The notes under the pieces: generated by a model
Told to the model about the DNA's origin: nothing
Databases searched by the model: none
The model's input: only the letters and a program-made list of their open reading frames with translations
In this document: piece by piece, positions 12,149 to 39,757 of the stretch
Position numbering within the stretch: position 1 is the first letter of the stretch
Layout: every line of letters starts with the position of its first letter
Position numbers and translations under genes: made by a program
Source: a virus
Length of the DNA: 39,757 bases
IMG/VR virus record: IMGVR_UViG_3300028585_000011
Strand: one strand, 5' to 3'

Positions 12149-12157
12149 GTCAAACAG

Positions 12158-12194: not shown

Positions 12195-12215
12195 CCTTTG
12201 CGCAATCGCGCCGCG

Positions 12216-12515: not shown

Positions 12516-12754
12516 CGCTTCATCATCCCGAACAGCTCGTCCAGTCCCTCCACGTCGGCCTCGAGCGCCGGGCCAATAGCCCGGACGGCAACGAACCCGT
12601 TGTCGATGTTCAGATCATCGATCTCGAAACGATCGATCCGGGCCATAGACCCGGATGCAAAAGAACGATGCGCGCGCAAGACCTGATCAAGCGAATACTC
12701 GGCGGGATAATTTTTCGTTATCCCGATCTCGCCACCTGTAACCATGATCGTCAT
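12512..12754 (-). CDS. Hypothetical acidic protein, 80 aa
   Basis: ATGA overlaps with both neighbours. No recognisable motif. Confidence 0.5.
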   Translation of the reverse strand: MTIMVTGGEIGITKNYPAEYSLDQVLRAHRSFASGSMARIDRFEIDDLNIDNGFVAVRAIGPALEADVEGLDELFGMMKR

Positions 12755-12855
12755 CGACCCAGCGCCAGCAAGTTACGCAGGATCCAGTGGCCGAGCCTCT
12801 CCCCCAATCGGACAGGCAGTCGCTTGCCATAGGCGTTGACCGTGTAAATCTTCAT
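12751..12855 (-). CDS. Hypothetical micro-ORF, 34 aa (MKIYTVNAYGKRLPVRLGERLGHWILRNLLALGR)
   Basis: Not in the ORF track because it is under 60 aa. I read it from the sequence: the ATG at 12855 overlaps the upstream stop (ATGA), and its stop overlaps the downstream ATG (ATGA at 12751-12754). It exactly bridges two genes. Confidence 0.4.
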   Translation of the reverse strand: MKIYTVNAYGKRLPVRLGERLGHWILRNLLALGR

Positions 12856-13352
12856 ATCCCTAACTCCTGTTGTGTTGTCTCGTCGCCGCGATCGACGAGC
12901 TCGATGTGTTTCCATACAGCATCATGGTAGGCGTCGCTGCCGCGCTCGACACCGGGCGGCAGATCCCATCCGAACATATGCCGCCAGTAGAGATCCCGCA
13001 CCATCTGCACGATCTCAATCCGATGCTGTGCCGTCGCGTTATCCATGCGACCTTTGTCGACCCGATCGGGGTACAGCCGGCGCCGATAGTCGAGTTCGCG
13101 ATCGAGCGCCTCGATCTTCTGCCTCCAGCTATGCTTGCGACCGGTGACATGCCAGTCGGCCGATCCGAGCTTCTCGCCCACGTTCGCCGAGATCTCCTGC
13201 CAGACCGAGATCTGATAGTCGGCTTCGCGTTGCTGCATCCGCCCCTTGTTGATCCGATCGGGGAAGACGTCGCGACGGCTATCGAGTTCGCGCTTGAGCT
13301 CGAGCACGATAGCGCCGCGCGCCTCGGTGATGTGGTGCGAGGCGAACGGCAT
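12852..13352 (-). CDS. Hypothetical protein with an internal tandem duplication, 166 aa
   Basis: I preferred the ATG at 13352 (TGATG overlap with the upstream stop) to the TTG at 13364. Two ~37-aa repeats are present: RELDSRRDVFPDRINKGRMQQREADYQISVWQEI and RELDYRRRLYPDRVDKGRMDNATAQHRIEIVQMV. Confidence 0.55.
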   Translation of the reverse strand: MPFASHHITEARGAIVLELKRELDSRRDVFPDRINKGRMQQREADYQISVWQEISANVGEKLGSADWHVTGRKHSWRQKIEALDRELDYRRRLYPDRVDKGRMDNATAQHRIEIVQMVRDLYWRHMFGWDLPPGVERGSDAYHDAVWKHIELVDRGDETTQQELGI

Positions 13353-13579
13353 CAGTGCGTGCAATCGGCTTCGGTGACGATCTGGTTTGCGAGCAACGGC
13401 GCATCGGGCCAGTCGCGCGATACGGTAATCACAAACATCTCGCCGTCGAGCTCGAAGCGCGCGCCGGCTTCCGTAGCAACGAAATCGTCCGCCAGCTCTA
13501 GATCCTGCATTGCGGCGATGTTGTCGGCGACGATACGGCCGAGCTGCACAAGCTGTTGATCGGTGAATGCCTTAGCCAT
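13352..13579 (-). CDS. Hypothetical protein, 75 aa
   Basis: ATG at 13579 is preceded by a strong RBS (AAGGAGGATTTC ATG on the minus strand). The ORF-track extension to 13777 is Arg/Pro-rich and lacks an RBS. Confidence 0.55.
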   Translation of the reverse strand: MAKAFTDQQLVQLGRIVADNIAAMQDLELADDFVATEAGARFELDGEMFVITVSRDWPDAPLLANQIVTEADCTH

Positions 13580-13599
13580 GAAATCCTCCTTTGGCCTGG

Positions 13600-13749
13600 T
13601 TAGATCCAGAAGCGCCGAACGACGCCGCTGTTGCGATGGCGCACGGTAACGAACCGCTTGGGCTTGCGGCGGTGCCGTGCGTATTCGAGTGTCGCGATCG
13701 CGGCGAACCCCAGCACGATCAGACAGAACCCAATTTGACCCAGATCCAT
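13600..13749 (-). CDS. Hypothetical small membrane protein, 49 aa (MDLGQIGFCLIVLGFAAIATLEYARHRRKPKRFVTVRHRNSGVVRRFWI)
   Basis: Read from the sequence; it is below the ORF-track cutoff. It has one hydrophobic segment followed by a basic tail and would be the first gene after the divergent control region. The RBS is weak (AGGGAA). Confidence 0.4.
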   Translation of the reverse strand: MDLGQIGFCLIVLGFAAIATLEYARHRRKPKRFVTVRHRNSGVVRRFWI

Positions 13750-13839
13750 TCCCGTATTCCCTGTTAGCTATCAGCAAACATTTACTGACAGAGCAGAGGG
13801 GGGCTTGTCAAACGGGTAATCAGATCGCTAACAAAGAGC
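13750..13839. promoter_or_regulatory. Divergent control region with paired operator-like inverted repeats
   Basis: TGTTAGCTATCAG (13762-13774) and CAGATCGCTAACA (13821-13833) are 11/13 reverse complements, and each abuts one of the divergent start codons. An inner inverted pair TGACA (13786-13790) / TGTCA (13806-13810) is present. Candidate rightward promoter TTGTCA (13805-13810)-N17-CTAACA (13828-13833). Leftward -35 TTGACA lies on the minus strand at 13810-13805. Confidence 0.45.
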
Positions 13840-14130
13840 ATGGCAAAAAAACGCACCATTCAAGAGCTGCGCGTCTGGCGCATGTCGCGCGGACTGACGA
13901 TGGAAGCGGCCGGCGCGCTGATCCGTATCGCGCATGACGATCCGAACGACGTCGGCGTAAGCCGGGTGACGTGGCATAGTTGGGAGCGCGGCGCGAAGAT
14001 CCCGAGCGCTGCCTATATGACAGAGCTCGAGCGCGTGACGGGCGTACAGCCGAACGCCTATTATGATCGACCGGCATCGCGCATTGTGGTTCCCGAAAAC
14101 GATCAGCGACAAATGGCACTCATCGCCTAA
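13840..14130 (+). CDS. XRE/Cro-type helix-turn-helix transcriptional regulator, 96 aa
   Basis: LRVWRMSRGLTMEAAGALIRI...VSRVTWHSWERGAKIPSAAYMTELERVTGV fits the XRE-family HTH pattern. It is the first gene of the rightward arm, next to the operator-like repeats. Confidence 0.65.
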   Translation: MAKKRTIQELRVWRMSRGLTMEAAGALIRIAHDDPNDVGVSRVTWHSWERGAKIPSAAYMTELERVTGVQPNAYYDRPASRIVVPENDQRQMALIA

Positions 14131-14144
14131 CCAGAGGTATCAAC

Positions 14145-14696
14145 ATGGCTGAAACTGACGTCGTTACGTCGAAGCTCGAGGACAGGATCCTCGGGGTTCG
14201 CATCCTCGCAACTGCTGTTCTTGGTGCGGCGATCGCGACCGATCACGAAACGGCGCTTGCCGTCGCCGTGCTCGAGGCGTCAACACGCAACATGACGACG
14301 GACGCGGAACCGCGCGAAGTCGAAAGCATTGCGTCGTCGTTCAACCGGCATATGGACGCGGTGCTTGATGCCGCCAACGCCAGCCACGCGGCCGACAGCC
14401 GGGTCACGCGCCGCGCGCATATGGCGAAGGCGATCGACCGGGCAGGGCTGCTGCTGGTCGAGCGCGGCTATGTCGCTGCCATGTTCGACGCGCTGAACCG
14501 CACGCGCGAGCAGGCGCAGGCGATCCGCAAATACCCGCTGCACAACGTCATGCCCGACAACGTCCGCACCGCGACAGCGTACCTGGACGATGTCCTTGCC
14601 GCGCAGCATCCCGAGATCTTCAAAGAATGGCTGATCGTCTGCGAATGGATCGGCAAGCCGGTCGAGGGCGTGGCCTCCGATAGCGAGGCACGCTGA
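14145..14696 (+). CDS. Hypothetical protein, 183 aa
   Basis: ORF with an AGAGG RBS, positioned between the regulator and the primase. No recognisable motif. Confidence 0.5.
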   Translation: MAETDVVTSKLEDRILGVRILATAVLGAAIATDHETALAVAVLEASTRNMTTDAEPREVESIASSFNRHMDAVLDAANASHAADSRVTRRAHMAKAIDRAGLLLVERGYVAAMFDALNRTREQAQAIRKYPLHNVMPDNVRTATAYLDDVLAAQHPEIFKEWLIVCEWIGKPVEGVASDSEAR

Positions 14697-14845
14697 TGCC
14701 GCGGGACAAGCGTATCGACAACGCATTGCGCGGGGTCGACTATTACCGCGACATGCGCGATCGGCTCGATAAGCTGTCCCGCACCCGCGCGCTGACCGAG
14801 GCGGAAAGCATCCAGCTCGAGCGGGCAATCTATCATGCAGGGTAG
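14696..14845 (+). CDS. Hypothetical micro-ORF, 49 aa (MPRDKRIDNALRGVDYYRDMRDRLDKLSRTRALTEAESIQLERAIYHAG)
   Basis: Read from the sequence. The ATG overlaps the upstream stop (TGATG at 14694-14698). Its end overlaps the primase start by 11 nt. Confidence 0.35.
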   Translation: MPRDKRIDNALRGVDYYRDMRDRLDKLSRTRALTEAESIQLERAIYHAG

Positions 14846-15938
14846 CGCGCACCGTCCGCAACGTCGCGTCGTCATCGAGCCGCGCGAGCTCGAGCAATTG
14901 TTGCGCGCCGAGACACTGCGCCTTGCGCGCAAGCTGCTGCCGAACGGCATGGAGAATTGCGGCTATTACGAGATCGGATCCGTCGCCGGCGACAAGGGGC
15001 AAAGCCTCAAGATCAACCTGTCGGGATCGCTGAAAGGATGCTGGACAGATTTCTCGGCGCCGAAAGGAACGCTCGAATATAGCGGCGACATGCTCAAGCT
15101 GATCGCCATTACGAAGTTCGGCGGGCGTCTGGGCGATGCGATCTCATGGGCGATCTCGTGGCTGGGTCTCGACGGACTGGATCCGGCGCGGCTGGCGACC
15201 GAGCGGGCGACGGCGAAGCGCGCGGCGATCGCGGCCGATGAAGATCAGGCGGCGCAAGCCGAGAAGCGCCGGCGCAATGCGATGAACCTGTACCTGTCGG
15301 GAACGTCGATCGCCGACACGCCGGCGGAACGCTACCTGATCTCGCGCGGCATCGATCTGCGCGCGCACGGCATGGCGGCGCCGGGCTCGCTCAAGTATCA
15401 GGCGGACGGCGTCTACTGCATGGAGGTACAGCGCAAGCTCCCGTGCATGGTCGCGGCCGTCACGAACATCGAAGGGCGCCACGTCGCCACGCACCGCACC
15501 TGGATCAAAGAAGACGGCAGCGGCAAGGCGGATCTGAAAGAGCCCAAGAAGGCGCTTGGCAAATATCAGGGCGGTTTCATCCCGATCTGGAAGGGCGACC
15601 ACAAGGTATCGATGGCGAACCTTCCCAAAGGCACGCCGATCCTGTGTTCGGAGGGGATCGAGGACGCGTTGACCGCGGCGATCGCGCGGCCGCAACACCG
15701 CGTCATCGCCGCGATCTCACTGTCGAACATCGGCGGGCTTGTGCTACCTGACGGCTGTCCGCTGATCATCCTCGCGCAGCGGGATCCGCCGGGATCGAAG
15801 GCAGAAGCGAGTCTTGAGCAGGCGATCGCGCGGCAACAGGAAGCGGGGCGAGACGTCCGACTGGCGTTTCCGCCTGCGGGAGTAAAAGACATCAACGATC
15901 TAGCTACAAAGAGTGGGGCGCAACGTAATGGCTGGTGA
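14835..15938 (+). CDS. Toprim-domain DNA primase (P4-alpha / plasmid primase-like N-terminal module), 367 aa
   Basis: N-terminal LLPNG...GQSLKINLSGSLKGCWTDFS...GDMLKLI pattern is typical of phage/plasmid primase N-domains. Toprim-like CSEGIEDALT and RDPPGSKAE...VKDINDL follow. Confidence 0.7.
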   Translation: MQGSAHRPQRRVVIEPRELEQLLRAETLRLARKLLPNGMENCGYYEIGSVAGDKGQSLKINLSGSLKGCWTDFSAPKGTLEYSGDMLKLIAITKFGGRLGDAISWAISWLGLDGLDPARLATERATAKRAAIAADEDQAAQAEKRRRNAMNLYLSGTSIADTPAERYLISRGIDLRAHGMAAPGSLKYQADGVYCMEVQRKLPCMVAAVTNIEGRHVATHRTWIKEDGSGKADLKEPKKALGKYQGGFIPIWKGDHKVSMANLPKGTPILCSEGIEDALTAAIARPQHRVIAAISLSNIGGLVLPDGCPLIILAQRDPPGSKAEASLEQAIARQQEAGRDVRLAFPPAGVKDINDLATKSGAQRNGW

Positions 15939-24336: not shown

Positions 24337-24365
24337 TTATAGGCACACCGTAAGGAGACAGTCAA
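24337..24365 (-). promoter_or_regulatory. Sigma-70-type promoter for the leftward recombinase arm
   Basis: The minus strand reads TTGACT (24365-24360), a 17-nt spacer, then CTATAA (24342-24337), about 27 nt upstream of the first RBS. Confidence 0.45.
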
Positions 24366-24607
24366 CAGCGATCTCGGGCGGTGCCCTGGACGATCTGCGC
24401 AACGCTCAACGCGCGCGGCCAGCTCGAACGGCCGCAGGCCGGCTCGAGCGGTGCGGCCGCGCCCTCATCATTCGCTGCCAAGCGAACGCGCGCAAGCAGC
24501 GCCGACGCAGTCGGTGCGACCGGCTTGCGCACAGCTCAATCTCTCCGCGCCCACGCCCGTTCCTTGTGGCCCAAGATCCGTCCCGCGCCCTCTTTTACCC
24601 CGGCCCA

Positions 24608-24636
24608 TTGCTTTCGAACATTCATGAGGCCATTAT
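24608..24636 (+). promoter_or_regulatory. Candidate rightward promoter reading into the iteron array
   Basis: TTGCTT (24608-24613), a 17-nt spacer, then CATTAT (24631-24636). Confidence 0.3.
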
Positions 24637-24662
24637 TGCTCGCAGATCGGGGGTTCGGGATT

Positions 24663-24921
24663 GTTCCCATGTTCCCAGCGATGTTCCCACGGCGGAACAC
24701 GCTAACCCACTGATAATACAGCGAAAATCGGCAATGTTCCCATGTTCCAACGGGAGGCGCGACAGCTACACGCATACACACGCACACTCGCGCGCGCATA
24801 CGCGAGGATTTGTGTGTTTATGTGGGAACATGGGAACATGTAGATATAGGTAAGCGATCTCAATGACTTACGCGTTCCCAATCATGTTCCCAATCGATCA
24901 GGCAGTTGGGAACATGGGAAC
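24663..24921. repeat. Iteron array: 11 copies of GTTCCCA/TGGGAAC (octamer TGTTCCCA) with a central alternating Py-Pu tract; candidate replication origin or pac/TerS binding region
   Basis: Forward copies start at 24663, 24671, 24683, 24736, 24744 (variant GTTCCAA), 24874 and 24886. Reverse copies start at 24823, 24831, 24907 and 24915. There is a 15-bp perfect inverted repeat: 24734-24748 ATGTTCCCATGTTCC and 24825-24839 GGAACATGGGAACAT. An alternating pyrimidine-purine tract runs 24767-24804. Confidence 0.85.
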
Positions 24922-25007
24922 AATTGGCCGCGTCTCGCGACGATCGCGGCGCCGTGCTATGCGGCCTGATCGGACGCGACGACGGCGCGAATAAAGAAAG
25001 GACTTTT

Positions 25008-25559
25008 ATGGACCAGCGGCCCGGACCGATCGAAGACGAGCTCAAAGAGGCCCGCGACACGGGGTTGCTCGCGGATCCCCAGCAGCTCGAGCTGATCCGC
25101 GACCAGATGCCCGATCGTGATGCAGCCACGGCCGTCGAGGTCGCGCGGCGACAGGGTCCAGGGCGGCGCAAGGGCTCGCGGAACAAGCGCAACGCCAAGT
25201 TCCGCGACCAGATCCTTTCGCTTGGTCAGCATCCGGGCATCGCGCTCCAGCGCGCCTATTCGACGCCGGTCGACGTGCTGGCGGCGCAGCTAGGCTGCTC
25301 GCTGCTCGAGGCCGCGCAGCTCGGGATCCGCGCCGCTGCCGAGCTGCTGCCCTACATCGAGGGCAAGCAGCCGGTCACGATCGACCTACGCGAGAAGCAT
25401 GACGTGGTGCTGATCATGGCCGGCGCGCCGGGCGTCGCTGGCGCCGATCTGGAGGCGATCGGCGACGATGTGCGGCAACGTGGCACGCTCGACGACGCGA
25501 TCGATTGGGATGGCGTGACGATCGAGGGCAATCGGATCGTCGACGACGACGGCGCGTAA
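25008..25559 (+). CDS. terS: Putative terminase small subunit, 183 aa
   Basis: ATG at 25008 follows AAAGGA. The ORF-track start (24906) lies inside the iterons. A basic GPGRRKGSRNKRNAKF motif and AAELLPYIEGK resemble alphaproteobacterial phage small terminases. It is the first gene of the packaging/head arm. Confidence 0.5.
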   Translation: MDQRPGPIEDELKEARDTGLLADPQQLELIRDQMPDRDAATAVEVARRQGPGRRKGSRNKRNAKFRDQILSLGQHPGIALQRAYSTPVDVLAAQLGCSLLEAAQLGIRAAAELLPYIEGKQPVTIDLREKHDVVLIMAGAPGVAGADLEAIGDDVRQRGTLDDAIDWDGVTIEGNRIVDDDGA

Positions 25560-25950
25560 GAACAGGGTAGAGCGTGACGTGACGTCTCGCGATCGCGGAT
25601 CATAGGAGGCAGATCGCAGCGCAAACCGGGCAATGGTCGGCGGTCTAGACCCTGCCGAGACGGATCGCACCCCCTCCCCCCGTCGATCGGCGACGACGCC
25701 GCGGCGCCACCCCCTACCCCCCCAAGCCGCGCGCGCGCCCGGTCTCCAGCCCCCAAGCGCACGACACAGGTCGAAATCCGGGCCGAAATCCCGCCCTCAC
25801 TACCTGTTCGCAATCTGAAAACCGCTAATTTTGAAAACGCCCTACGGGTCGGGGCGGGGGTATGGGTTAGCCGATTGACAACAGGCTTTCGGACCGTGCA
25901 GATGGGTAGGCCGGGAACCGACGCCGGCGCAAGGGGCTAGGGTCTGGGTT
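25560..25950. repeat. Repeat-rich 390-bp non-coding region downstream of terS
   Basis: Short direct repeats: CACCCCCT(C/A)CCCCC at ~25668 and ~25709; CCCCCAAGC(C/G)GC at ~25718 and ~25749; CGAAATCC at 25772 and 25784; TGAAAAC(C/G)C at ~25816 and ~25832. A G-rich tract at 25846-25869 is partly complementary to the C-rich repeats. The only ORF (25633-25818) is Pro/Arg-rich and has no properly spaced RBS. Confidence 0.7.
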
Positions 25951-26304
25951 ATGACGATTGATCGAAACGACGTGCTGCTCGCGGTCGAGGCGCTGACGGC
26001 GCTGAACGAGGCGAAGCTTCCCGATCTGAAACGGCTGTCGCTCGAGCACAATGCGCAGCTCGTCCGCATAGGCGCGGAGATCCGCCGGATGGCTGGTGGC
26101 GATCAGCCCTATCTCCCGATGATCAACGCAGCGACGACGCTGGATGCCATCGGCCGCGCAAAGCCGTTCGAAATGGTGCCCTGGGGCGAATGGATCCGCA
26201 CGGCGATCGACGATCTGGAACGGCTTGCGCTCGAGCCCCCGGTCGAGCATACACCGAACCGGGCCGAGCACCGCGCCATCGCCGCGACCAGCCGCCCCCA
26301 ATGA
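25951..26304 (+). CDS. Hypothetical protein, 117 aa
   Basis: First ORF after the non-coding region. Its stop overlaps the next start (ATGA at 26301-26304). Confidence 0.5.
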   Translation: MTIDRNDVLLAVEALTALNEAKLPDLKRLSLEHNAQLVRIGAEIRRMAGGDQPYLPMINAATTLDAIGRAKPFEMVPWGEWIRTAIDDLERLALEPPVEHTPNRAEHRAIAATSRPQ

Positions 26305-26567
26305 TTACCGAAGCCGCACCCGGTCCTGAAAAGAGGACCAGTAGCCAAATCGAGCGATTGATGGCGCTCGAGAAGCTCGTTGAGCTGCTCGGCAGTCAGA
26401 AACGCGCAGCGGAAGCGATCCTAGTCGATCCATCTTCGTTTCGTCGCAAGCTTCGCGGCGATCGCGAGGTCAGTGCGTTCGAAATGAAACTAGCCGGCGA
26501 CGAGCTGTTTCGTCTGGGAAATCAAATGCTCGAGTATGCCGAGCGAATTAGGAGTGTTCACGCATGA
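26301..26567 (+). CDS. Small HTH-like protein, 88 aa
   Basis: I chose the ATG at 26301 (ATGA coupling) rather than 26190. LVELLGSQKRAAEAILVDPSSFRRKLRGDREVSAFEMKLA fits a Cro/XRE-like helix-turn-helix pattern. Confidence 0.5.
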   Translation: MITEAAPGPEKRTSSQIERLMALEKLVELLGSQKRAAEAILVDPSSFRRKLRGDREVSAFEMKLAGDELFRLGNQMLEYAERIRSVHA

Positions 26568-27574
26568 CTGATACGACAGACCAGCAAGCGGTGACGGTTG
26601 CGCAGGAGGACCGGGAGGCTGCAGCAAAACTGTTCGGCTTCCCGGCGTGGGAGAACATCATGTACGTCGAGGATCGCGCAACGAGCGAACGTGTGCGGGC
26701 CGCCGTTCTAGCCTTCGCCCGCCACCGCCTCGCCTCTGTATCATCCGCGAGTGCAGAGGCTGTGACCGAAGCAGCAAAGCCGTGGGCGAATTATCATGGC
26801 GACCTGCCCGATTACGATCATCCGTTGCGGCCGGTATTTGAAAGCGGGATTCAGTACACGGTTGAAATGCTGGCGAAGCAATTGGACGTTGCCGAGTGGG
26901 TGCCGTGCGACGGGACGGAAGAGTTCGACGGCGACCTTGGCGGCACGCTGATGAACATCGTTTTGGAGGCCATGCCGAAGGACGAGCACGGCGATGCGAT
27001 CTGGCCGCGCGATCTGCCGGGAAACGCCGCATCCTCCGAACCTGTACCCGCGACCAATCAGGCGGGAGAGGTGGAGCGAGCAGTCCTGACCCGCATCATG
27101 GTAGCTCATAACCGCCTGAACCGTTCGGAAACGACCGCGCAGGAGTTCGAGGATTACACGCTCCCGTTGCTCGCCGCCCTCGCTACCCAGCCCGCAACGT
27201 CGCAGGAGGGGGAGCGCGTCCGCCTGTTGGTCGCACAAGTCGAAGCTGGTCAGTTTGACGAGTTGGCTGCCGTCGCGGACCGGTGGGCTGAGGCTGCCGG
27301 CGTGCAGCGGATGATGAACGCCATTGCATCGGTGTTCGAGAAGTATGCGCCGCAGGAGATCATGGACCGGTTCCGCGAGAAGCTGGCGGGGCTGATGCAT
27401 CTGGCGTTCGTAGAGGGTGCGGCACAGGGAGTTTTACAGATCGCCGCCACCCCGACGCCTCCCACCCTATCGGAGGACTTGACGGTGCTGACGTGCGATT
27501 GTGATTGCGCAACCGTGTGCCCTAATGGGAAGACCGGCAGCGAGGCAGTCTGCCAGATCCTAGTGAGGCAATGA
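26564..27574 (+). CDS. Hypothetical acidic protein with C-terminal Cys cluster, 336 aa
   Basis: ATGA-coupled start. The C-terminus reads LTCDCDCATVCPNGKTGSEAVC. No recognisable enzymatic motif. Confidence 0.5.
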   Translation: MTDTTDQQAVTVAQEDREAAAKLFGFPAWENIMYVEDRATSERVRAAVLAFARHRLASVSSASAEAVTEAAKPWANYHGDLPDYDHPLRPVFESGIQYTVEMLAKQLDVAEWVPCDGTEEFDGDLGGTLMNIVLEAMPKDEHGDAIWPRDLPGNAASSEPVPATNQAGEVERAVLTRIMVAHNRLNRSETTAQEFEDYTLPLLAALATQPATSQEGERVRLLVAQVEAGQFDELAAVADRWAEAAGVQRMMNAIASVFEKYAPQEIMDRFREKLAGLMHLAFVEGAAQGVLQIAATPTPPTLSEDLTVLTCDCDCATVCPNGKTGSEAVCQILVRQ

Positions 27575-27575
27575 A

Positions 27576-29177
27576 TTGAGCACGCTTCCGCAGTTGATGA
27601 AGCCGGTAGGCCCCAAGGCGGAAGCGTTCGTGTGGGACAAGCGGATGATCACCGGCATCATGGGGCCGGTGGGATCCGCTAAAACGACGTCCTGCATCCG
27701 CAAAATGATCCAGTCGACGCTATGGCAGAACCCCGGCCCCGATGGCGTCCGTCGCGCGAAGTGGGGCGTCATCCGCGACACGTACCCGCAGCTCAAGAAA
27801 ACTGCGCTCGCGTCGTGGTTTACGTGGTTCCCGAAGGAATTGGGACAGTGGAACGGCGAGGCGCCGTTTGAGCATACCGTTTCCATCCTGATCCCAGGCC
27901 AAGGCAAGCTCGAGATCACTGTCCTGTTCGCCGCTATGGGCGAAAACAAGGTCGAGGACGTCATGCGCGGCTGGGAGCTGACCGGGCTCTGGCTGAACGA
28001 GGGCGATCTTCTTTCGAAATCCGTCTTTACCTACGGTCTAGGCCGCATCGGTCGCTATCCGGGCGCGGTGCTGGGGGGCTGCACTTGGCGCGGTATCATT
28101 CTCGACATGAACGCGCCCGACGTGGAGAATTGGACGTATGATGTTTTCGTGGATCAGAACCTTGGGCTCGACAAGGAAATCGAGGAAAGCGTCAAGGAAG
28201 ATCTGGGCGAGCTGTTCGGTGTCGGTTTCTATCGCCAGCCGGGCGGCCGTTCTAAGGATCCGATGCCCGAAAACATCACCAATCTACCGAAGGGCTACTA
28301 TGCGCAGCAGATGATCGGCGCGTCGGCCGACTATGTGCGCCGGTTTATCGACAGTCTATTCGGCGCGACGCGTCGCGGGCAACCGGTCTATCCCGAATAC
28401 AACGACGAGATCCACTGCGCGAAGCTGGAAAGCCGGGCGCACAAGCTCGCGCCGATCCCCGGCGTGCCGATCACGATCGCGACCGATCAGGATCTATCCG
28501 CCGCGGCCGTCGTCATGCAGCGCGATCACCGCGGGCAGGTCAGGATCCTTGGCGAAATCGTCAATTTTGCGGACAACGACGAAACCGAGCTCGAGCAGCT
28601 CGGCGCGACGGCGTTCGGCCGCAAGTGCGGGCGGTATTGCAAGGATGAGTTCCCCGATAACCCGGTCGCGGACATCGCATGGTGCGATCCGGCCGCGACG
28701 GCAGGCGAAAGCGCGACAGGCGCGGATCCGAGTTGGCGGCAAAACTTCCAAAAGGGTCTGAATGAGGAGCTGGGGCGGACCGGCAACGACACGATCCGCG
28801 TCAAGGCCGCGCCGATCCCCGGCAACAAGATCGACGAACGGCTCGACGCCGTCCGCAAACCCATGCTGCGACTGGTCGAGGGCGGCGAGCCGGGCTTCAA
28901 GATCTGCCCTGTTCGATGCAAGGTCACGCGCCGCGGGTTTACCGGCATGTATGTGTTCTCGCGGATCCAGTTGCGCGGGGGGCATGGTAGCTGGCAAGAC
29001 AAGCCGCTGAAAAACGACTATGCGAACGTCCAGGATGCGATCCAGTACGGCTGCATCGCCATTGCCAAGCACGGCAACGGCAGGATCAGCGGCACGGGGC
29101 ATCACCATCCAGGCAGCGGACCCGCCGCAACGCGTGTTCAGAACGTGAAGGATTACGATATTCATGCAGGGGGGTGA
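27576..29177 (+). CDS. terL: Terminase large subunit, 533 aa
   Basis: Walker A is GIMGPVGSAKTT and Walker B-like is TGLWLNEGD. The C-terminal half has acidic nuclease-like motifs. The TTG start at 27576 lies 7 nt after GAGG. ATG 27597 is an alternative start. Confidence 0.8.
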   Translation: MSTLPQLMKPVGPKAEAFVWDKRMITGIMGPVGSAKTTSCIRKMIQSTLWQNPGPDGVRRAKWGVIRDTYPQLKKTALASWFTWFPKELGQWNGEAPFEHTVSILIPGQGKLEITVLFAAMGENKVEDVMRGWELTGLWLNEGDLLSKSVFTYGLGRIGRYPGAVLGGCTWRGIILDMNAPDVENWTYDVFVDQNLGLDKEIEESVKEDLGELFGVGFYRQPGGRSKDPMPENITNLPKGYYAQQMIGASADYVRRFIDSLFGATRRGQPVYPEYNDEIHCAKLESRAHKLAPIPGVPITIATDQDLSAAAVVMQRDHRGQVRILGEIVNFADNDETELEQLGATAFGRKCGRYCKDEFPDNPVADIAWCDPAATAGESATGADPSWRQNFQKGLNEELGRTGNDTIRVKAAPIPGNKIDERLDAVRKPMLRLVEGGEPGFKICPVRCKVTRRGFTGMYVFSRIQLRGGHGSWQDKPLKNDYANVQDAIQYGCIAIAKHGNGRISGTGHHHPGSGPAATRVQNVKDYDIHAGG

Positions 29178-32098: not shown

Positions 32099-32424
32099 GC
32101 ATCTACGAGCGATCGCGCGAAATGGTGGAGATCGTCGCGCGTCGGCTCGGGTTTCTCCGCGTCGTCAGCTATAAGCGGGTGTTCCACGACGCGGAGCTTC
32201 CCGGCAACGTCGTGTCGCGCGACGCGAGCCACGTTCTTGCGGATTTGCGCAAGTTCGCATGGATCGGCAAGCATTCGTTCGGCCGCGACCAAACCAATCG
32301 CATCGATCCGATCGCGATGGCGCGCATAGAGGGTCGACGCGAGGTATTTTACAGGATTATGGATCACTTAAATCTGGACGAGACGGCGATCCAGACTTTC
32401 ATGGAGGTAAGTGTAGATGAATAG
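32095..32424 (+). CDS. Hypothetical protein, 109 aa
   Basis: TTG start overlaps the portal stop (TTGA), with GGAGG 6 nt upstream. No firm motif. Confidence 0.45.
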   Translation: MSIYERSREMVEIVARRLGFLRVVSYKRVFHDAELPGNVVSRDASHVLADLRKFAWIGKHSFGRDQTNRIDPIAMARIEGRREVFYRIMDHLNLDETAIQTFMEVSVDE

Positions 32425-33457
32425 GGCACGTATGTTTGGCGGTGGCATTGCCGCAATGATGACGTCGGCGATCGCGCTGACGCCGTGGGCGCCTTCGTCC
32501 ATGTGCATGATCGAGGGCGAAGGCGACGCGGGCGCCGGCGGGGGCGGTGGTGGCGCTGCCGGCCTGCTCGATGACGAAACGCCTACGCCGTCGCCAAGTC
32601 CGACGCCCACGCCAAGCCCGACACCGACGCCGACACCCGGCCCGACTGGCGAAGCTGATGCGCTTGCGTGGGCGTCGGGTGTGTCGACGACGGCGGACGG
32701 CGAGAACGCCAGCAACTTCGATTGGTTGAAGTCCAAGGGCGTCAAGGATCTCGACGGCCTGGTCAAAATGACGCGGGACACCGAGGCGGCGTTTCACGGC
32801 AAAGGAACGATCAAGGTTCCCGGCGAGGGCGCTAAGCCGGAGGAAGTCGCAGCCTTCAACAAGGCGATCGGCGTGCCCGAGAAAGCGGCCGACTATACGA
32901 TCGAGCTGCCGGCGGTCGGTGAAGGCGACGACAAGCTTGAGCTCGACGTCGCGTTTCTGGATCCGATGCGCGAGGCGGCGCTAAAGGCCGGCGTCCCCAA
33001 AGCGGCATTCGAGGCACTCGGCAAGGCGTTCGTGCAACACCAGCTCGACAACATGGCGAACGCCGCGCGTGCGCAGGACGGCGAGGTTGACGCGCTTTAC
33101 AAGGAATGGGGGCCGAACAAGGCGGCGAACGTCCAGGACTTCCGCGCCGGCGCGAAGGTGCTGGGCCTGTCCAGGGCGGATATTGCCGAATGGCAGACCG
33201 GCGCCGGCTCGAGGAAGGTCATGGAGAAGCTCGCCGCGATCGGCAAGATGGCCGGCGAGGATCTTCTTTCCGGCGGGCAGCGGCAGAATTTTGGCGTCGC
33301 CAGCAAGGAGGAAGCGCAGCGGCAGATCGCGGCAATGTCCAATGACAAGGACATTCAGGCGAAGCTCAAGCAGAAGGACGCCGCGACGGTCGCCAAGTGG
33401 AACCGGCTTAACGACGCGATCGCCGAATTCAGCAAGCGCGAAGCTAACACCAAGTGA
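32417..33457 (+). CDS. Scaffolding protein, 346 aa
   Basis: GGAGG lies 9 nt upstream of the ATG. A low-complexity Gly and (Thr/Ser-Pro)n region is followed by helical repeats with GVPEKAADYTIELP-type motifs typical of podovirus scaffolds. It sits between portal and capsid. Confidence 0.65.
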   Translation: MNRARMFGGGIAAMMTSAIALTPWAPSSMCMIEGEGDAGAGGGGGGAAGLLDDETPTPSPSPTPTPSPTPTPTPGPTGEADALAWASGVSTTADGENASNFDWLKSKGVKDLDGLVKMTRDTEAAFHGKGTIKVPGEGAKPEEVAAFNKAIGVPEKAADYTIELPAVGEGDDKLELDVAFLDPMREAALKAGVPKAAFEALGKAFVQHQLDNMANAARAQDGEVDALYKEWGPNKAANVQDFRAGAKVLGLSRADIAEWQTGAGSRKVMEKLAAIGKMAGEDLLSGGQRQNFGVASKEEAQRQIAAMSNDKDIQAKLKQKDAATVAKWNRLNDAIAEFSKREANTK

Positions 33458-33519: not shown

Positions 33520-33822
33520 ATGACGTTGAAACCCGTAGAACCCGCCGATTTCGACCGATCGCGCGCGGCCGATCTTCACCAGACCGCGACGTCGCAGGCA
33601 TTGCCGATGACCGCGACGCCGGCGCCGGAACACGTCCAGCGCGTCCACACCGAACGGCGCGAGCTGTTCGAGAAGCTGGAGAAGCTCGAGGCGTTCATCG
33701 CCGGCCCCGCGATCGGCGAGCTCGACAAGGTCGATGCGATGCTGCTCGAGTTGCAGGCAAGCGCAATGCGGCAGTATCTCGAGATCCTCGTACGGCGTCT
33801 CAACCGGTTCGGGGTCGCCTGA
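33520..33822 (+). CDS. Hypothetical helical protein, 100 aa
   Basis: ATG at 33520 follows GAAGGAAG. The ORF-track GTG start (33454) overlaps the scaffold stop and a strong hairpin at 33463-33491. Confidence 0.5.
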   Translation: MTLKPVEPADFDRSRAADLHQTATSQALPMTATPAPEHVQRVHTERRELFEKLEKLEAFIAGPAIGELDKVDAMLLELQASAMRQYLEILVRRLNRFGVA

Positions 33823-33829
33823 TCTCGCG

Positions 33830-33906
33830 GCCGGGGTAATCCGCCAAGGTGGGGGACCGGCGCTAGGCGCGCTGAGTGTAGGTTGGTTCGATGCCAACCC
33901 CCGGCC
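33830..33906 (+). ncRNA. tRNA-like structure (non-canonical; possibly a degenerate tRNA or tRNA mimic)
   Basis: A 7/7 acceptor stem pairs GCCGGGG (33830-33836) with CCCCGGC (33899-33905). T is present at position 8. The T-arm GTTGG-TTCGATG-CCAAC (33882-33898) is canonical. The anticodon arm CGGCG-CTAGGCG-CGCTG (33858-33874) is weak, giving anticodon AGG with C at position 37. The D-arm is poor and no CCA is encoded. Confidence 0.3.
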
Positions 33907-33911
33907 ACACC

Positions 33912-33929
33912 AAACCGCGCCGGCGGTTT
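33912..33929 (+). terminator. Small hairpin immediately after the tRNA-like element
   Basis: AAACCGC gccg GCGGTTT followed by TC. Confidence 0.35.
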
Positions 33930-33950
33930 CCGGCAACACAGGAGTGCAAC

Positions 33951-34190
33951 GTGGGAGATGAAAATACGGTCGGCAGCGCGTCCGACGATCGCACGGCGAA
34001 CAACGCAGTTCGCCACCAGTACCGGGTGCTCGACGACAGCGAAAAGGCGGCAATGCTTGCGGTCAAGGATGCCGGTGCGGCGTTCCTCGACATGCTCGAC
34101 CAGCACTGCAAGCCCGGTCGGGAAACCGCGCTCGCGAAGACGAATTTACAGCAGGCGGTCATGTGGGCGGTGAACGGTATTACCGGCTAA
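33951..34190 (+). CDS. Acb2/Tad1-hairpin-family small protein (candidate cyclic-oligonucleotide sponge, anti-CBASS), 79 aa
   Basis: The in-frame GTG at 33951 lies 6 nt after AGGAG. The C-terminal motif GRETALAKTNLQQAVMWAVNGI, together with the upstream HQYRVLDDSEKAAMLAVKDAG, matches the family pattern Y..l..e.....iK......RE.slA.T.LEeA.MWAn.aI as I recall it. Confidence 0.55.
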   Translation: MGDENTVGSASDDRTANNAVRHQYRVLDDSEKAAMLAVKDAGAAFLDMLDQHCKPGRETALAKTNLQQAVMWAVNGITG

Positions 34191-34218
34191 CGCGTTCGCG
34201 ATCAGGTAACACATATTG

Positions 34219-34255
34219 ACAGGCCGCGGATCCCGTTACAGGTTCCGCGGCCTGT
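34219..34255 (+). terminator. Strong hairpin / terminator after the Acb2-like gene
   Basis: ACAGGCCGCGGA (34219-34230) pairs with TCCGCGGCCTGT (34244-34255) to give a 12-bp stem, followed by TCCTTTG. Confidence 0.5.
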
Positions 34256-34414
34256 TCCTTTGGGGGGGCGGACCCCGGATTAGCCGAGCCATCGGCCCCG
34301 GCGCTGATGGGAAAGCCACCCGGCGATCGGCCGTTAAACGATAGAGCGGCCCGGCTATCCAGCCGACTAGCCTTTCGCAGATGATCCGCACTTTTCATTT
34401 GTAGGGAGGCCCCG

Positions 34415-35347
34415 ATGGGCGACGTTACCTTTACCGCGCAGACCCGTTTCGAAAACAACATGCGTCTGGCACTGAACCAGACCAAGCCCAAGCTCGCGAT
34501 CCATTCCGCCGATCGCGATTGCGCCGGCTCGGACAAGATCAAGATCGACAACGTCATTCAGAACAAGAAGACGTCGAAGAAGACCGAGCGTGAAACCGAC
34601 GTCCAGTACGATCAGACCGGCTGGGATGGCATCTGGGTCGCCAAGCCCGACGCCGACTATCTCGCCAAGCTGATCGACAACGACGACAAGCTGATGACGG
34701 AAGTCGACCTGGAGGGCGGCGAAGTCATGGCGCAGAGCGCCGCGATCAACCGCGCGTGGGACGATGCGTGGCTGGGCGGGTTCTTCTCGTCGATGATCAC
34801 CGGCAAGCAGGGCACGGTTCTGAACCCGTTCCCGATCGGCAACGTCGTGCCGGTCGATCTGCGCGTCACCGGCACCGGCCCGACCGGGATGAACACCAAG
34901 AAGCTCAAACGCGCGAAGCGGATCCTGACGCAGAATTTCGTCGACATCGAGAATGTCGAGATCTTTATCGCGTTGACCGCGCAGGCGATCGAAGATCTCG
35001 AAGGCGAGATCGAGATCACCAACGCGGATTACAAGTCGCTCGGCGCGCGCCTCGCACCGGACGGCAAGACGATCCTCGGCATGCTGGGCTTTACGTTCGT
35101 CACGATCGAGCTGGGCAATCCCCTGTTCGACAACTCGGCGCTGACCGTGACGACGGACGGCAACAACTATCGCAAGCTGCCCTTCTGGTCGAAGGACGGC
35201 ATGGTGATGTGCCCGTGGGAACGCCTGTTCACGTCGGTCGACCCGATGCCCGGCAAGCATCACGCGCATCAGGTCTATTCGCGCACGACGGTTACGGCGT
35301 CGCGCACGGATCAGAACCGCTGCGGGTACGTGCTCGTCGCCGAGTAA
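34415..35347 (+). CDS. Major capsid protein, 310 aa
   Basis: Strong RBS (GGGAGG). It lies downstream of the scaffold and is followed by a terminator hairpin. Its size and sequence character fit podovirus HK97-fold coat proteins. Confidence 0.7.
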   Translation: MGDVTFTAQTRFENNMRLALNQTKPKLAIHSADRDCAGSDKIKIDNVIQNKKTSKKTERETDVQYDQTGWDGIWVAKPDADYLAKLIDNDDKLMTEVDLEGGEVMAQSAAINRAWDDAWLGGFFSSMITGKQGTVLNPFPIGNVVPVDLRVTGTGPTGMNTKKLKRAKRILTQNFVDIENVEIFIALTAQAIEDLEGEIEITNADYKSLGARLAPDGKTILGMLGFTFVTIELGNPLFDNSALTVTTDGNNYRKLPFWSKDGMVMCPWERLFTSVDPMPGKHHAHQVYSRTTVTASRTDQNRCGYVLVAE

Positions 35348-35364
35348 GCCAACGCGATCGCGCA

Positions 35365-35957: not shown

Positions 35958-36590
35958 ATGCCGCTGGATTATGTGACCGTCGCCAACCTCGCGTGCGGTT
36001 TTTTCGGCGAAGACAATCAGATCTCGGACAAGGATCAAGACAGCAAGGCGGCGAACGCGGTTCGCAACGCATGGGATCTGGTCCGCCTGTTCGTGCTATC
36101 GAAAACCGACTGGACCTTCGCGACGCGCCGGCAACGGCTCGCAGCTCGCGTTCCTAACGTCGAATGGCCGATCATCAACTTTGAATTCGCCTATCCGCTG
36201 CCAAGTGATTTCGTAAAGCTCGTCAGCGTGTTTGATCAGCAGATCGGCGAGGAAGACTTTGCGCTCGAGTCTGGGCCGAACGGGCGCGAGATCCTGCTAG
36301 ACCGCCGCGGCCCGCTCGAGATCCGGTATATCTGGGACGTCGAGGAAGTCGCGCGTTGGTCGCCAGAATTCATCGAAGCGTTTTCCATGCGGCTCGCATG
36401 GCAAGTTGCCGATCAGCTATCCGGCGACAAGCAGCGCAAGCAACAGGCGCTCGACGCGTTCAAGACGGCGATCACCGACGCGCGCGGATCCGACGCGCGG
36501 CAGAAGCCCCCGCGGCAGATGGTCGAAACGGACTGGTCGCGCGGCCGTCGCGGCTATGGCCTGTCGACCCGCGCGCCGGGCACCTACTGA
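35958..36590 (+). CDS. Tail tubular protein A / adaptor (T7 gp11-like), 210 aa
   Basis: The N-terminal pattern VTVANLACGFFGEDNQISDKDQDSKAANAVRNAWDLVRLFVLSKTDWTFA is typical of gp11-like adaptors. It lies directly upstream of the nozzle gene. Confidence 0.65.
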   Translation: MPLDYVTVANLACGFFGEDNQISDKDQDSKAANAVRNAWDLVRLFVLSKTDWTFATRRQRLAARVPNVEWPIINFEFAYPLPSDFVKLVSVFDQQIGEEDFALESGPNGREILLDRRGPLEIRYIWDVEEVARWSPEFIEAFSMRLAWQVADQLSGDKQRKQQALDAFKTAITDARGSDARQKPPRQMVETDWSRGRRGYGLSTRAPGTY

Positions 36591-38812
36591 TGGTCAAGAC
36601 GATCATACCAACCGGCAACGGTGGCGAGCTATCCAGGCGGATGGAAGGCCGCGTAGATCTCGACGGGATCTATGATCGCGGCTTTGCCGAAATGTTCAAT
36701 TTCGTGCCGACGGTTGAGGGGCCGATCGGCAAGCGGCCGGGGACGCGGCATATCGCCGCGGGGTTCGGTTCGTGGATCTCGAGCTATGTGCCGCAACTCC
36801 GACAGGGCTATATTCTGGAATGGGGCGAGCAGGCGCTTCGCTTCTACACGAACGGCGGGCAGATCCGCGACGGCGCCAACCCCTACCAGATCTCTACGCC
36901 GTACGCGGCCGCGGACGCTCGCAAGATCTGGAAGCACAAAAGCAAGGATCGGCTCTACCTGACGCATGCCAGCTATCCGCCGGCGTCGCTCAACCGCACG
37001 GGCGCCGCGGTGTTCAATGTCGCGCCGCTGCCATTGATGCGCGGACCGTTCAAGACGCAGAACGGCGACGAGGCGATCCGGGTCAATGTCAGTGCGACGA
37101 CTGGCACGGCAGTGGCAACGGCATCCGCGGCGATCTTCAAGCCCGGCCATGTCGGCGCACCTTTCCTGATCGAAGCGCAGGACTTTTCCGACGTGACGGC
37201 ATGGGAGCCGGGATACAACGGCGTCACGATCGGGGCAAAGCGGCGATCGGACGGCAAGGTCTATCAGGCGGAAACCGCCGGCAAAACGGGGACCGTCCAG
37301 CCGACGCACACGGAAGGCACCGAATACGACGGCGCCGCGATCGGCAAGGACATCAACGACAAAGACGCCGGCGGGATCAAGTGGACGTATCTTTACGATC
37401 GGTTCGGCGAAGCGACGATCGCGACCGTCGCCCCCGATGGCCTGTCCGCTACGCTCAACATCACCCGGCGCTTTGCCGACAGTCTTGTTTCGACGCCGTC
37501 TTTCCGCTGGGCGCACTGCGCATTCAGCGCCGCGGAAGGCTGGCCGCATCTGGCGTGCATCTGGGCGGGTCGTCTGTTTCTGTTCAAGGAGCTGGAATTC
37601 TACGGGTCGGTCCGAAACGACTTTTTCAACTTCGCCTATTACACGGACGGCGGGCTGTTCGCGGAGGATATGGCGTTTCGGCGTACGCTGGGATCCAGTG
37701 AGGCGCCGATCTGGGTCAAGGCCGATCAGCAATTGCTTGTCGGCACGCCATCGGGCGAGCTGTTGCTTGGCGCCATCAACTCGCAGGCGGGCGTATCGGG
37801 CGACAATATCGACGCCTTCCCGCAATCGAGCTACGGATCGTCCGACGTCGAGCCCGTCGACATCGGTACGGGGATCCTCTTCGTCCAGCGCGGCAACCGC
37901 AAGATCCGCGAGGCTGAATACCAGTTCGAACGCAACAGGTTCGTCGGCGTCAACACCACGATCTACGCGCGCCACATCATGCGATCGGGATTGCTCCAGC
38001 TCGCCTACCAGCAGGAGCCGGAAGAATTGGTGTGGGGCGTCCGCAATGACGGCGTGATGATCGCGCACGCGCATAGTCCAGAACAGCAGATCAAGGGCTT
38101 TTCCCGCGCCGCGCTGGGCGCCGGCCGCGCGTTGTCGCTGGCGACGATCCCGGCGGACAATGCCGAGACGGACGAATTATGGATCCTTGCGGATCTCGAC
38201 GGCACGCGGGCTGTTCTACAGCTCGGCGACTGGTGGGAAGAAGACGAGGACGCGACGGATCTCGAGCAGCTCGCCAAGCTCAAGGAGGCGTTTTTTGTAG
38301 ACTTCGGCGTCTCGTACCGCGGGGCGCCGAAGACGAGCTTTACGCAAGGGCTGTCGCATCTGGCCGGACGCGACGTTCGGATCCTCGCCGATGGCGGCGT
38401 GGTCGGCGGGCGATCGGTGACACAGGCCGGCGTCCTAACCCCGGATCTGCCCTATCCGGCGTCGACGGTGCATATCGGCATCGGATACCAAGCCCGGCTG
38501 AAACCCATGCGGCCCGAGCTGCGCGGCGCCGGCACTGTCCAGGGGCGGCGCAAGCGCGTCGTCAAGATCATGCTTCGCCTGATCGACACCGCGGCCGCGT
38601 ATCTGCGCAACCCCAAAGGCCACCTTGACAGCATGATCGACCGGCCGCGCAATGCGAACATGGACGAGCCCGTGCCGCTGTTCAACGGCGACACCAAGAA
38701 CACCAGCTATTCGGGCGCGTACGATCGCGACGGCCAGCCTGTCATCGTGTCGGACGATCCGCTACCAATGATGATCTCGGCAATCATGCCAGACATCGAG
38801 ATAGAAAATTGA
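36590..38812 (+). CDS. Tail tubular protein B / nozzle (T7 gp12-like), 740 aa
   Basis: I chose the ATG at 36590 (TGATG overlap) over 36356. The N-terminal FVPTVEGPIGKRPGTRHI pattern, the size and the synteny after the adaptor all fit. Confidence 0.65.
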   Translation: MVKTIIPTGNGGELSRRMEGRVDLDGIYDRGFAEMFNFVPTVEGPIGKRPGTRHIAAGFGSWISSYVPQLRQGYILEWGEQALRFYTNGGQIRDGANPYQISTPYAAADARKIWKHKSKDRLYLTHASYPPASLNRTGAAVFNVAPLPLMRGPFKTQNGDEAIRVNVSATTGTAVATASAAIFKPGHVGAPFLIEAQDFSDVTAWEPGYNGVTIGAKRRSDGKVYQAETAGKTGTVQPTHTEGTEYDGAAIGKDINDKDAGGIKWTYLYDRFGEATIATVAPDGLSATLNITRRFADSLVSTPSFRWAHCAFSAAEGWPHLACIWAGRLFLFKELEFYGSVRNDFFNFAYYTDGGLFAEDMAFRRTLGSSEAPIWVKADQQLLVGTPSGELLLGAINSQAGVSGDNIDAFPQSSYGSSDVEPVDIGTGILFVQRGNRKIREAEYQFERNRFVGVNTTIYARHIMRSGLLQLAYQQEPEELVWGVRNDGVMIAHAHSPEQQIKGFSRAALGAGRALSLATIPADNAETDELWILADLDGTRAVLQLGDWWEEDEDATDLEQLAKLKEAFFVDFGVSYRGAPKTSFTQGLSHLAGRDVRILADGGVVGGRSVTQAGVLTPDLPYPASTVHIGIGYQARLKPMRPELRGAGTVQGRRKRVVKIMLRLIDTAAAYLRNPKGHLDSMIDRPRNANMDEPVPLFNGDTKNTSYSGAYDRDGQPVIVSDDPLPMMISAIMPDIEIEN

Positions 38813-39252: not shown

Positions 39253-39671
39253 CGATCGGCAAGGCATTCGGGCAAATCATCGGGGGCGTCGCGCAGCAGG
39301 AAGCCGGCAAATACACGCGCAGCGTCATGCAGACGAACGCGGCGAATGCCGAGGCTGACACGCAAAGCGAGATCGAGCGGCTGCGCACGACGGCGCGGCT
39401 CGCGATGGGGCGACAGGTCAATACGCCGGGCGCCAGCGGGCTCGAGTTCAGCGGATCCGCGCTCGACGCGCTTCGCGAAAGCGGCATCGAAAGCCAGCTC
39501 GAAATGATGCAGACGCGCCGGCAGGGTGCGACGGCCGCAACAGGCTATCGCACACAGGGCAAGATCGCGTATGCGCAAGGCTACAACGGCATGATCCAGG
39601 GCTTTGCCGGCGCCGCGGCCGCGATCGGCGAGGACGCCAAGGATTATGCTGCGGCAGGCAGTGGGGGATAA
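39249..39671 (+). CDS. Small internal virion protein (gp14-like slot), 140 aa
   Basis: ATG at 39249 overlaps the upstream stop (ATGA). The protein is Gly/Ala/Gln-rich (MTIGKAFGQIIGGVAQQEAGKY...), typical of podovirus core proteins. Its last 41 nt are duplicated at 1-41. Confidence 0.55.
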   Translation: MTIGKAFGQIIGGVAQQEAGKYTRSVMQTNAANAEADTQSEIERLRTTARLAMGRQVNTPGASGLEFSGSALDALRESGIESQLEMMQTRRQGATAATGYRTQGKIAYAQGYNGMIQGFAGAAAAIGEDAKDYAAAGSGG

Positions 39672-39757
39672 ACGATGGCGGGATCTGGCGGAGTCTATCG
39701 GGCCGGTAACAATCCGGGCGGCTCGACACGCTTCGCAGGGGCCAGCCCGGATGCGTT
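39631..39757. repeat. Terminal direct repeat, copy 2 (identical to 1-127)
   Basis: See copy 1. Bases 39675-39757 re-read the first 83 nt of CDS 45-2033. Confidence 0.95.

Follow-up and report, generated by a model that had tools for sequence, protein, structure and literature searches.

A predicted Acb2-family sponge gene and a neighbouring Sequestin gene between the scaffold and capsid genes of a podovirus-type phage

What does a short open reading frame (ORF) do between the putative scaffold gene and the major capsid gene of a phage? The question is raised by positions 33951..34190 of the IMG/VR virus record IMGVR_UViG_3300028585_000011, a stretch of 39,757 nucleotides (nt) that was analysed as a whole and is called the window here. 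An earlier reading made from the letters alone (the sequence-only reading) had assigned the ORF to the Acb2/Tad1 hairpin family and had taken it for an insulated cassette inside the head-gene block. In this study, we found that the ORF is real and that its predicted product, judged by profile, modelled fold and conservation of ligand residues, is a genuine and ordinary member of the known Acb2 sponge family. The best-supported reading, to which we give a probability of roughly 0.75, is that the protein would be a PaMx33-type sponge for the cyclic oligonucleotides of the cyclic-oligonucleotide-based antiphage signalling system (CBASS). From its sequence, an extra or shifted ligand specificity is a real possibility. 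The acb2-like gene is an accessory, moron-like insertion at a sponge hot-spot. Because the gene directly upstream of it is assigned to the Sequestin family, the locus is a predicted two-sponge island (Sequestin plus Acb2) and not a single gene; the sequence-only reading was right about acb2 and had missed the Sequestin gene (PF21825) at 33520..33822.

The gene and its ribosome-binding site (RBS) are placed as follows.

33951..34190, + strand: acb2-like gene, encoding a predicted Acb2-family sponge of 79 amino acids (aa); from ORF and translation, Pfam, profile and fold
33940..33944, + strand: Shine-Dalgarno sequence AGGAG, 6 nt 5' of the GTG start; from sequence inspection

The ORF begins with GTG and its translation, MGDENTVGSASDDRTANNAVRHQYRVLDDSEKAAMLAVKDAGAAFLDMLDQHCKPGRETALAKTNLQQAVMWAVNGITG, is 79 aa long. 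An identical 79-aa product is present in a public protein collection (P0001), where it is an independent gene call on a 39.8-kb contig of the same phage. This and our own ORF calling confirm the 79-aa ORF with its GTG start and AGGAG RBS as it had been described from the letters. An alternative in-frame ATG lies at 33891, within a tRNA-like element; the GTG start is favoured because the lengths of about 430 homologues found by word search, almost all of 73-87 aa, cluster at roughly 75-80 aa. The guanine-plus-cytosine (GC) content at third codon positions (GC3) is 0.76 in the acb2-like frame versus about 0.62-0.65 in the flanking non-coding DNA, and the composition of the gene shows no sign of recent acquisition.

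Family membership was first of all a matter of profiles. Against Pfam PF24729 (Acb2/Tad1 hairpin), whose cutoff (gathering score) is 27, the protein scores 66 bits with an E-value of 3.4e-18; the match covers residues 24-78 and 56 of the 58 profile positions. PF24729 is present in all of 120 homologues among the matches listed, and the subfamily to which the protein belongs comprises at least 648 clusters at 50% identity (E <= 1e-10). A profile of this subfamily was built from 30 homologues and searched against the PDB sequences with HMMER. It found PaMx33 Acb2 (8ixz/8h2j) with an E-value of 2.4e-4, followed by Acb2_43 (9ptq, 0.007), T4 Vs.4 (0.05) and Tad1 (0.13). When the same profile was aligned by hhalign to the validated JBD67 Acb2, the probability was 85.8% and the E-value 5.3e-6, with 36% identity over 55 columns. 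In the AlphaFold2 (AF2) model computed from an alignment, the protein is predicted to form two antiparallel helices (residues 29-52 and 57-78) with a predicted local distance difference test (pLDDT) score of about 98. Foldseek against the PDB placed Acb2 (8h2j/8h2x) first, with a probability of 0.99 and a root-mean-square deviation of 2.7 A over 78 columns, then Vs.4 and then Tad1. In a structure search of BFVD, 15 of the 16 top matches carried the name 'Acb2/Tad1 hairpin domain-containing protein' and one was unnamed, at a probability of 1.00. PADLOC and NCBIfam gave no match for either the acb2-like protein or the Sequestin. The assignment to the Acb2/Tad1 hairpin family, for which the sequence-only reading had named a profile search and a look at the predicted fold as checks, is thus upheld by a significant Pfam match and by a helical hairpin in the AF2 monomer, as well as by the residues described next. 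Separately, ten long representatives of the subfamily were considered as possible Sequestin-Acb2 fusions; no second Pfam domain was found in them, and their gene calls probably extend too far.

In PaMx33 Acb2, Y11 and K26 are essential for binding of cyclic GMP-AMP (cGAMP) in the cyclic-dinucleotide pocket, whereas R67 and T74 are essential for binding of the cyclic triadenylate cA3 in the cyclic-trinucleotide pocket, which is also contacted by A70 and I71; mutating the pocket residues abolishes or weakens ligand binding (PMC10312549). By both HMMER and hhalign, Y24, K39, R57 and T64 of the window protein align to Y11, K26, R67 and T74, respectively; A60/L61 align to A70/I71, and L27 aligns to L14. 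The four residues are invariant in the 30 homologues. The same holds for Y24 and K39 in 18 homologues that are more distant, where R57 and T64 reach a conservation of at least 90%; L27 is invariant in both alignments. The residues of the cyclic-trinucleotide pocket are known to vary within the Acb2 family. The sequence-only reading had taken the Tyr-to-Lys spacing as equal to that of Y11 and K26. Since Y24 and K39 align to these very residues, whose roles are published, the spacing is confirmed.

How would such a protein act? From the solved structures of the family we infer that six copies assemble into a hexamer. Three pockets at the two-fold interfaces, in which Y24 would stack on the base and K39 would form a salt bridge with the phosphate, would sequester cGAMP-type cyclic dinucleotides. 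Two further pockets on the three-fold axis, formed by R57, A60, L61 and T64, would sequester cyclic trinucleotides such as cA3. With the second messenger of the CBASS cyclase removed, the killing effector would never be switched on. The adjoining Sequestin would sequester 3' cyclic ADP-ribose (3'cADPR), the signal of type I Thoeris, so that both genes may make up a small anti-signalling island. Transcription of the island presumably goes along with that of the head genes and would coincide with the triggering of CBASS and Thoeris by virion-assembly proteins. Two published findings agree with such timing: CBASS activation is determined by late virion assembly (10.1101/2023.05.21.541620), and the capsid has been implicated in triggering type I Thoeris. 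It is also conceivable that the sponges could expose the phage to Panoptes-type decoy systems.

Several points weigh against a PaMx33-type sponge. Of the experimentally tested Acb2 homologues, even the nearest do not exceed 35% identity to the window protein, and the ligand does not follow from the family alone: Acb2_43 is a binder of 3'cADPR that shows no CBASS inhibition (Hadary et al. 2025). A single-sequence phmmer search of the PDB with the protein returned no Acb2 and only noise (WD40, HslU), so the Acb2 match in the PDB needed the profile. Foldseek gave the model weak E-values (0.24), which is common with short helical hairpins. With G79 as its last residue, the protein is without the C-terminal tail of PaMx33 Acb2 (P90 equivalent), which helps to cover the base in the dinucleotide pocket. 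Instead of the tail there is a 23-residue N-terminal extension, conserved over residues 9-23, which lies outside PF24729 and is poorly modelled, the N-terminal 20 residues being of low confidence in the AF2 monomer. The conserved N-terminal motif, SxSDxRTxNNxVRH (S9-A-S-D-D-R-T-A-N-N-A-V-R-H22), is kept across the subfamily. Finally, a scan of 32000-36000 for sigma-70 promoters found no promoter, so the expression timing given above is an assumption.

The tested relatives speak partly to the ligand. All 44 Acb2 sequences tested by Hadary et al. were scored with the subfamily profile, and the best were Acb2_18 (44 bits), Acb2_7 (37) and Acb2_13 (33). Acb2_18 inhibits both CBASS systems and not Thoeris, Acb2_7 inhibits the E. 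albertii CBASS and type I Thoeris, and Acb2_13 inhibits both CBASS systems and type I Thoeris (Hadary et al. 2025). For the E. albertii CBASS, 3'3'-cGAMP and 3'3'-cUA were tested in the same work.

The alternative that survives best is that the protein is an Acb2-fold sponge whose main ligand is something other than a CBASS cyclic oligonucleotide, namely a Thoeris-type signal (3'cADPR or a related ADP-ribose derivative) or another nucleotide. The N-terminal extension S9..H22 would then remodel the pocket or add one, as the N-terminal beta-strand of Acb2_43 does. Ten of the 44 tested homologues, Acb2_43 included, inhibit type I Thoeris (Hadary et al. 2025), two of the three nearest ones (Acb2_7 and Acb2_13) do so besides inhibiting CBASS, and Acb2_43 binds 3'cADPR through residues of its extra N-terminal strand. 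The subfamily-wide conservation of the N-terminal motif outside PF24729 and the loss of the pocket-covering tail point in the same direction. However, all four residues that bind CBASS ligands in PaMx33 Acb2 are kept under strong conservation, whereas Acb2_43 is without the Tyr-equivalent arrangement and matches the subfamily profile over the second helix only. Moreover, the gene next door belongs to a family that sequesters 3'cADPR, and a second sponge for this signal would be redundant. We therefore regard a different main ligand as unlikely, if still worth keeping in mind, and prefer the PaMx33-type sponge for CBASS signals.

Why is such a gene found among head genes? The borders of the site are the following.

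32417..33457, + strand: putative scaffold gene, left border of the site (phrog_3742; between portal/Bbp19 and capsid, at a homologous position in relatives)
34415..35347, + strand: major capsid gene, right border of the site (Pfam PF19821 Phage_capsid_2, 130.8 bits)

The left border is a putative scaffold gene by position only. The gene order is of podovirus type, with the portal (PF12236), the positional scaffold, the capsid (PF19821) and the tail-tube proteins (phrog_394 and phrog_376), and the placement within a scaffold-capsid block claimed by the sequence-only reading is borne out. A capsid-based search yielded 24 related viral contigs with the same order of portal, Bbp19, scaffold and capsid, and the content of the scaffold-capsid gap was listed for each of them. 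The capsid as a single query had no match in the viral contigs; an alignment with the capsid of contig L012 was needed. In most of the 24 relatives the gap is about 230-240 nt long and holds no sponge gene, and in some of them a small peptide ORF occupies part of the sponge-less gap. The closest relative (L016, capsid 43% identical) has no sponge gene in the gap, L026 has Sequestin only, L012 has Acb2 only, and L017 has Sequestin, a small hydrophobic peptide and Acb2. Because relatives with the same layout carry none, either or both of the sponge genes, the acb2-like gene is an accessory insertion, and the moron-like character proposed for it holds. Between the Acb2 of L012 (5001..5222) and the window protein the identity is 70%, between the two capsids only 26%; this difference suggests that acb2 has been exchanged horizontally between phages into the same site.

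An ORF for a strongly hydrophobic peptide of 35-43 aa was also seen at the scaffold-capsid site of L012 (5222..5329), L017 (3470..3601) and L019 (about 3747..3854). It adjoins the sponge genes where these are present, has no Pfam match and is absent from the window.

Close homologues of the acb2-like gene are found elsewhere too: beside an S24 repressor, in early/replication regions, downstream of a Mu-like portal, upstream of a terminase and, in Sinorhizobium phage Aussie, between adaptor and stopper. In JBD67 the validated acb2 is likewise part of a head module and lies two genes downstream of the major head gene. In an unrelated 68-kb contig (L015), 3001..5004 encodes a 667-aa fusion of a portal (PF06381, residues 55-403) with the anti-CBASS nuclease Acb1 (PF23474, residues 516-662), and a close Acb2 homologue (P0011, 75% identical) lies directly downstream at 5001..5231.

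The position between scaffold and capsid, on the same strand as the head genes, could also mean that the product is a head-assembly or structural accessory, such as a scaffold or capsid helper, which merely shares its hairpin shape with Acb2. Most relatives with the same head module do without the gene, and homologues that are 60-78% identical adjoin a repressor, lie in early/replication regions or precede a terminase in unrelated phages. The family match is also specific in sequence, ligand residues included, and goes beyond similarity of fold. A role in head assembly is thus very improbable. The weakest idea, a chance open frame in GC-rich DNA, can draw on several long spurious ORFs that overlap the gene on both strands, the usual by-product of a window with 63% GC, and is already refuted by hundreds of homologues conserved at the protein level, the Pfam E-value of 3.4e-18, the correctly spaced RBS and the raised GC3 of the frame.

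Between the scaffold and acb2-like genes lie the following features.

33520..33822, + strand: Sequestin-family gene, 100 aa (PF21825), with the RBS GAAGGAAG upstream
33829..33908, + strand: tRNA-like element between the sponge genes, called tRNA-Pro(AGG) by ARAGORN
33912..33929, + strand: 7-bp hairpin AAACCGC-GCCG-GCGGTTT, from RNA folding, between the tRNA-like element and the acb2 RBS

The product of 33520..33822 matches Pfam PF21825, which is named Sequestin in a newer Pfam listing, with 62.4 bits (cutoff 24.8). Sequestins act as dimers that soak up 3'cADPR, the signal of type I Thoeris, and were discovered through their frequent fusion to other sponge domains (Tal et al. 2025); some Acb2/Tad proteins also carry PF21825 (Hadary et al. 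2025). In the window protein, R41, E45, Q79 and R93 have the same spacing as the mutated residues R7, E11, Q45 and R59 of SequestinB, and they are invariant in comparison with two Sequestins of related phages. In SequestinA and SequestinB, the E, the Q and the distal R are required and the first R is not (Tal et al. 2025). A homologue search with the window Sequestin returned only itself, a PDB sequence search gave no match, and a structure search with its single-sequence model found generic helical bundles only. It was also observed that the window Sequestin is longer at its N-terminus, by an unusual extension of about 36 aa, than the 65-aa Sequestins of related phages.

The sequence-only reading had described a tRNA-like element and a hairpin upstream of the gene, and both were located. 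The former has an 8-bp acceptor stem, a canonical T arm, a weak 3-bp D arm and an atypical anticodon loop, CUAGGCG, with C at position 37 and an A34 that is unusual in bacteria. It does not qualify as a genuine tRNA: its best Rfam match, tRNA-Sec, reaches 23.1 bits (E 0.078), below the gathering score of 47. Since ARAGORN made four calls in 150 dinucleotide shuffles of the window, a chance origin of the element is unlikely; its fold energy is ordinary (z = -0.8). It may be a degenerate tRNA. An exact search with the 3' half of the element in genome and viral contig collections gave no match, and so no host tRNA and no attP-type origin was found. Among the relatives examined, the element is unique to this phage; those with acb2 at the same site do not have it, and it is no component of a transferable acb2 cassette. 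The 7-bp hairpin at 33912..33929 is followed by no T-run and was not called by a terminator scan.

A broader proposal can be made from the sequence for both the N-terminal extension and the tRNA-like element. The extension would mark a large Acb2 subfamily in which it replaces the pocket lid, with a novel range of ligands or an extra site as possible consequences. The tRNA-like element may be a functional part of the island, either as an RNase P-type processing or stabilising signal or as a tRNA mimic against a tRNA-targeting defence. We consider this proposal doubtful, slightly more so than a different main ligand.

Downstream of the acb2-like gene, the region up to the capsid gene contains two overlapping features.

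34191..34414, + strand: structured leader/intergenic region 5' of the capsid gene, 224 nt, with a minimum free energy of -103.1 kcal/mol (z = -3.67 versus shuffles)
34216..34255, + strand: TTGACA followed by a 12-bp GC hairpin (34219..34255, -26.9 kcal/mol)

The 12-bp GC hairpin that the sequence-only reading had placed at 34219-34255 exists, but not as a boundary of a cassette. TTGACA with the hairpin is the single such site in the window, and it is found at the same place 5' of the capsid gene in all relatives examined (L012, L016, L017, L019, L026, L031, L034 and L035), sponge-less ones included. Because it is kept in relatives without sponge genes, the hairpin is not specific to the cassette; it belongs to the upstream region of the capsid gene and is not an insulator. 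Together with the absence of the tRNA-like element from acb2-carrying relatives, this speaks against the insulated cassette that had been claimed. In a scan of 32000-36000 the GC hairpin was called neither a terminator nor a sigma-70 promoter, and its tail, TTCCTTT, is a weak T-run. TTGACA with the hairpin may be a clade-specific late regulatory element. The hairpin sequences after TTGACA were seen to differ between the phages, and there is no recognisable -10 box.

The window itself is complete and closes into a circle of about 39,630 bp, and its two ends (1..127 and 39631..39757) have a repeat of 127 nt in common; three public contigs of the phage show 100% identity. No Pfam match was obtained for ten large ORFs (nine within 45..29177, plus 36356..38812), and PHROGs recognized tail proteins only among the large ORFs. 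A blastn search of 30000-37000 against GenBank phages gave only short, low-identity matches to unannotated gut phage contigs. The phage lineage is poorly covered by current family libraries.

Two 'hypothetical' genes of a metagenomic podovirus-type phage can thus be annotated as predicted sponges, one against CBASS and the other against Thoeris, and sponge genes have landed repeatedly at the scaffold-capsid junction of this phage clade. That the sponges stand beside the capsid gene agrees with published evidence for CBASS and type I Thoeris being set off by proteins of virion assembly. What is known of sponge proteins is not altered by these findings: the literature already counts about 9,000 Acb2 homologues, and relatives of the window protein are already labelled 'Acb2/Tad1 domain-containing protein' in public databases. 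A modest added interest lies in the scaffold-capsid hot-spot, the N-terminal motif and the tRNA-like element between the sponges.

Among known systems, the Acb2 of PaMx33 and JBD67 (PDB 8H2J, 8H2X, 8IXZ) is the closest model. It is a small helical hairpin and the best structural match, it has the YRxL...K motif (Y11/K26) and the RxxA[IL]xxT motif (R67/T74) in common with the window protein, and the JBD67 gene is likewise encoded inside a head-gene module. However, the window protein is only about 24-36% identical to it. It has neither the long inter-helix insert nor the C-terminal kink and tail (P90), for which it has the 23-residue N-terminal extension instead, and it is shorter, with 79 aa versus 92-93 aa in the PaMx33 chains and 108 aa in the JBD67 ORF. 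T4 Vs.4, an Acb2 homologue (PDB 7UQ2), is of the same family and fold and is the second-best structural match. It differs in keeping only T74 of the trinucleotide-pocket pair, whereas the window protein keeps both R and T.

Among the tested homologues, Acb2_13 and Acb2_18 have the R-x-YR/K-x-L...K...T...MW pattern in common with the window protein, and Acb2_18, Acb2_7 and Acb2_13 all inhibit the E. albertii CBASS, in keeping with a CBASS sponge. They differ from the window protein in their low identity (at most 35%) and in that none has its SASDDRTANNAVRH motif. Since Acb2_7 and Acb2_13 also inhibit type I Thoeris, the activity spectrum near the window protein is not uniform. Acb2_43 (PDB 9PTQ), of the same family, is a hexameric hairpin whose extra N-terminal element takes part in ligand binding. 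Unlike the window protein, it has beta-strands at both ends and a 3'cADPR pocket made of T4, H5, L6, V7, K19 and K55. The profile alignment to 9ptq runs over helix 2 only, and the window protein keeps the PaMx33-type pocket residues; it has no C-terminal extension, and its AF2 model contains no strands. An alternative N-terminal pocket in the window protein is possible.

Tad1 (PDB 7UAV, 7UAW) has the PF24729 hairpin domain in common with the window protein and gave weak profile and fold matches. Its solved chains are about 120-140 aa long, of which the profile aligns to the C-terminal hairpin region only. The remainder of Tad1, outside the hairpin, is an N-terminal beta-rich domain. The window protein has 79 aa, and no N-terminal domain is modelled before its hairpin.

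As in the sponge fusions (Tal et al. 2025) and the N4-like hot-spot (bioRxiv 2026.06.04.730250), where sponge genes are fused or clustered in phage genomes, the predicted sponge genes of the window stand together. In contrast to those cases, the island of this podovirus-type genome is set within the portal-scaffold-capsid block and not in an early/replication region, and its sponges are two separate genes with a tRNA-like element between them.

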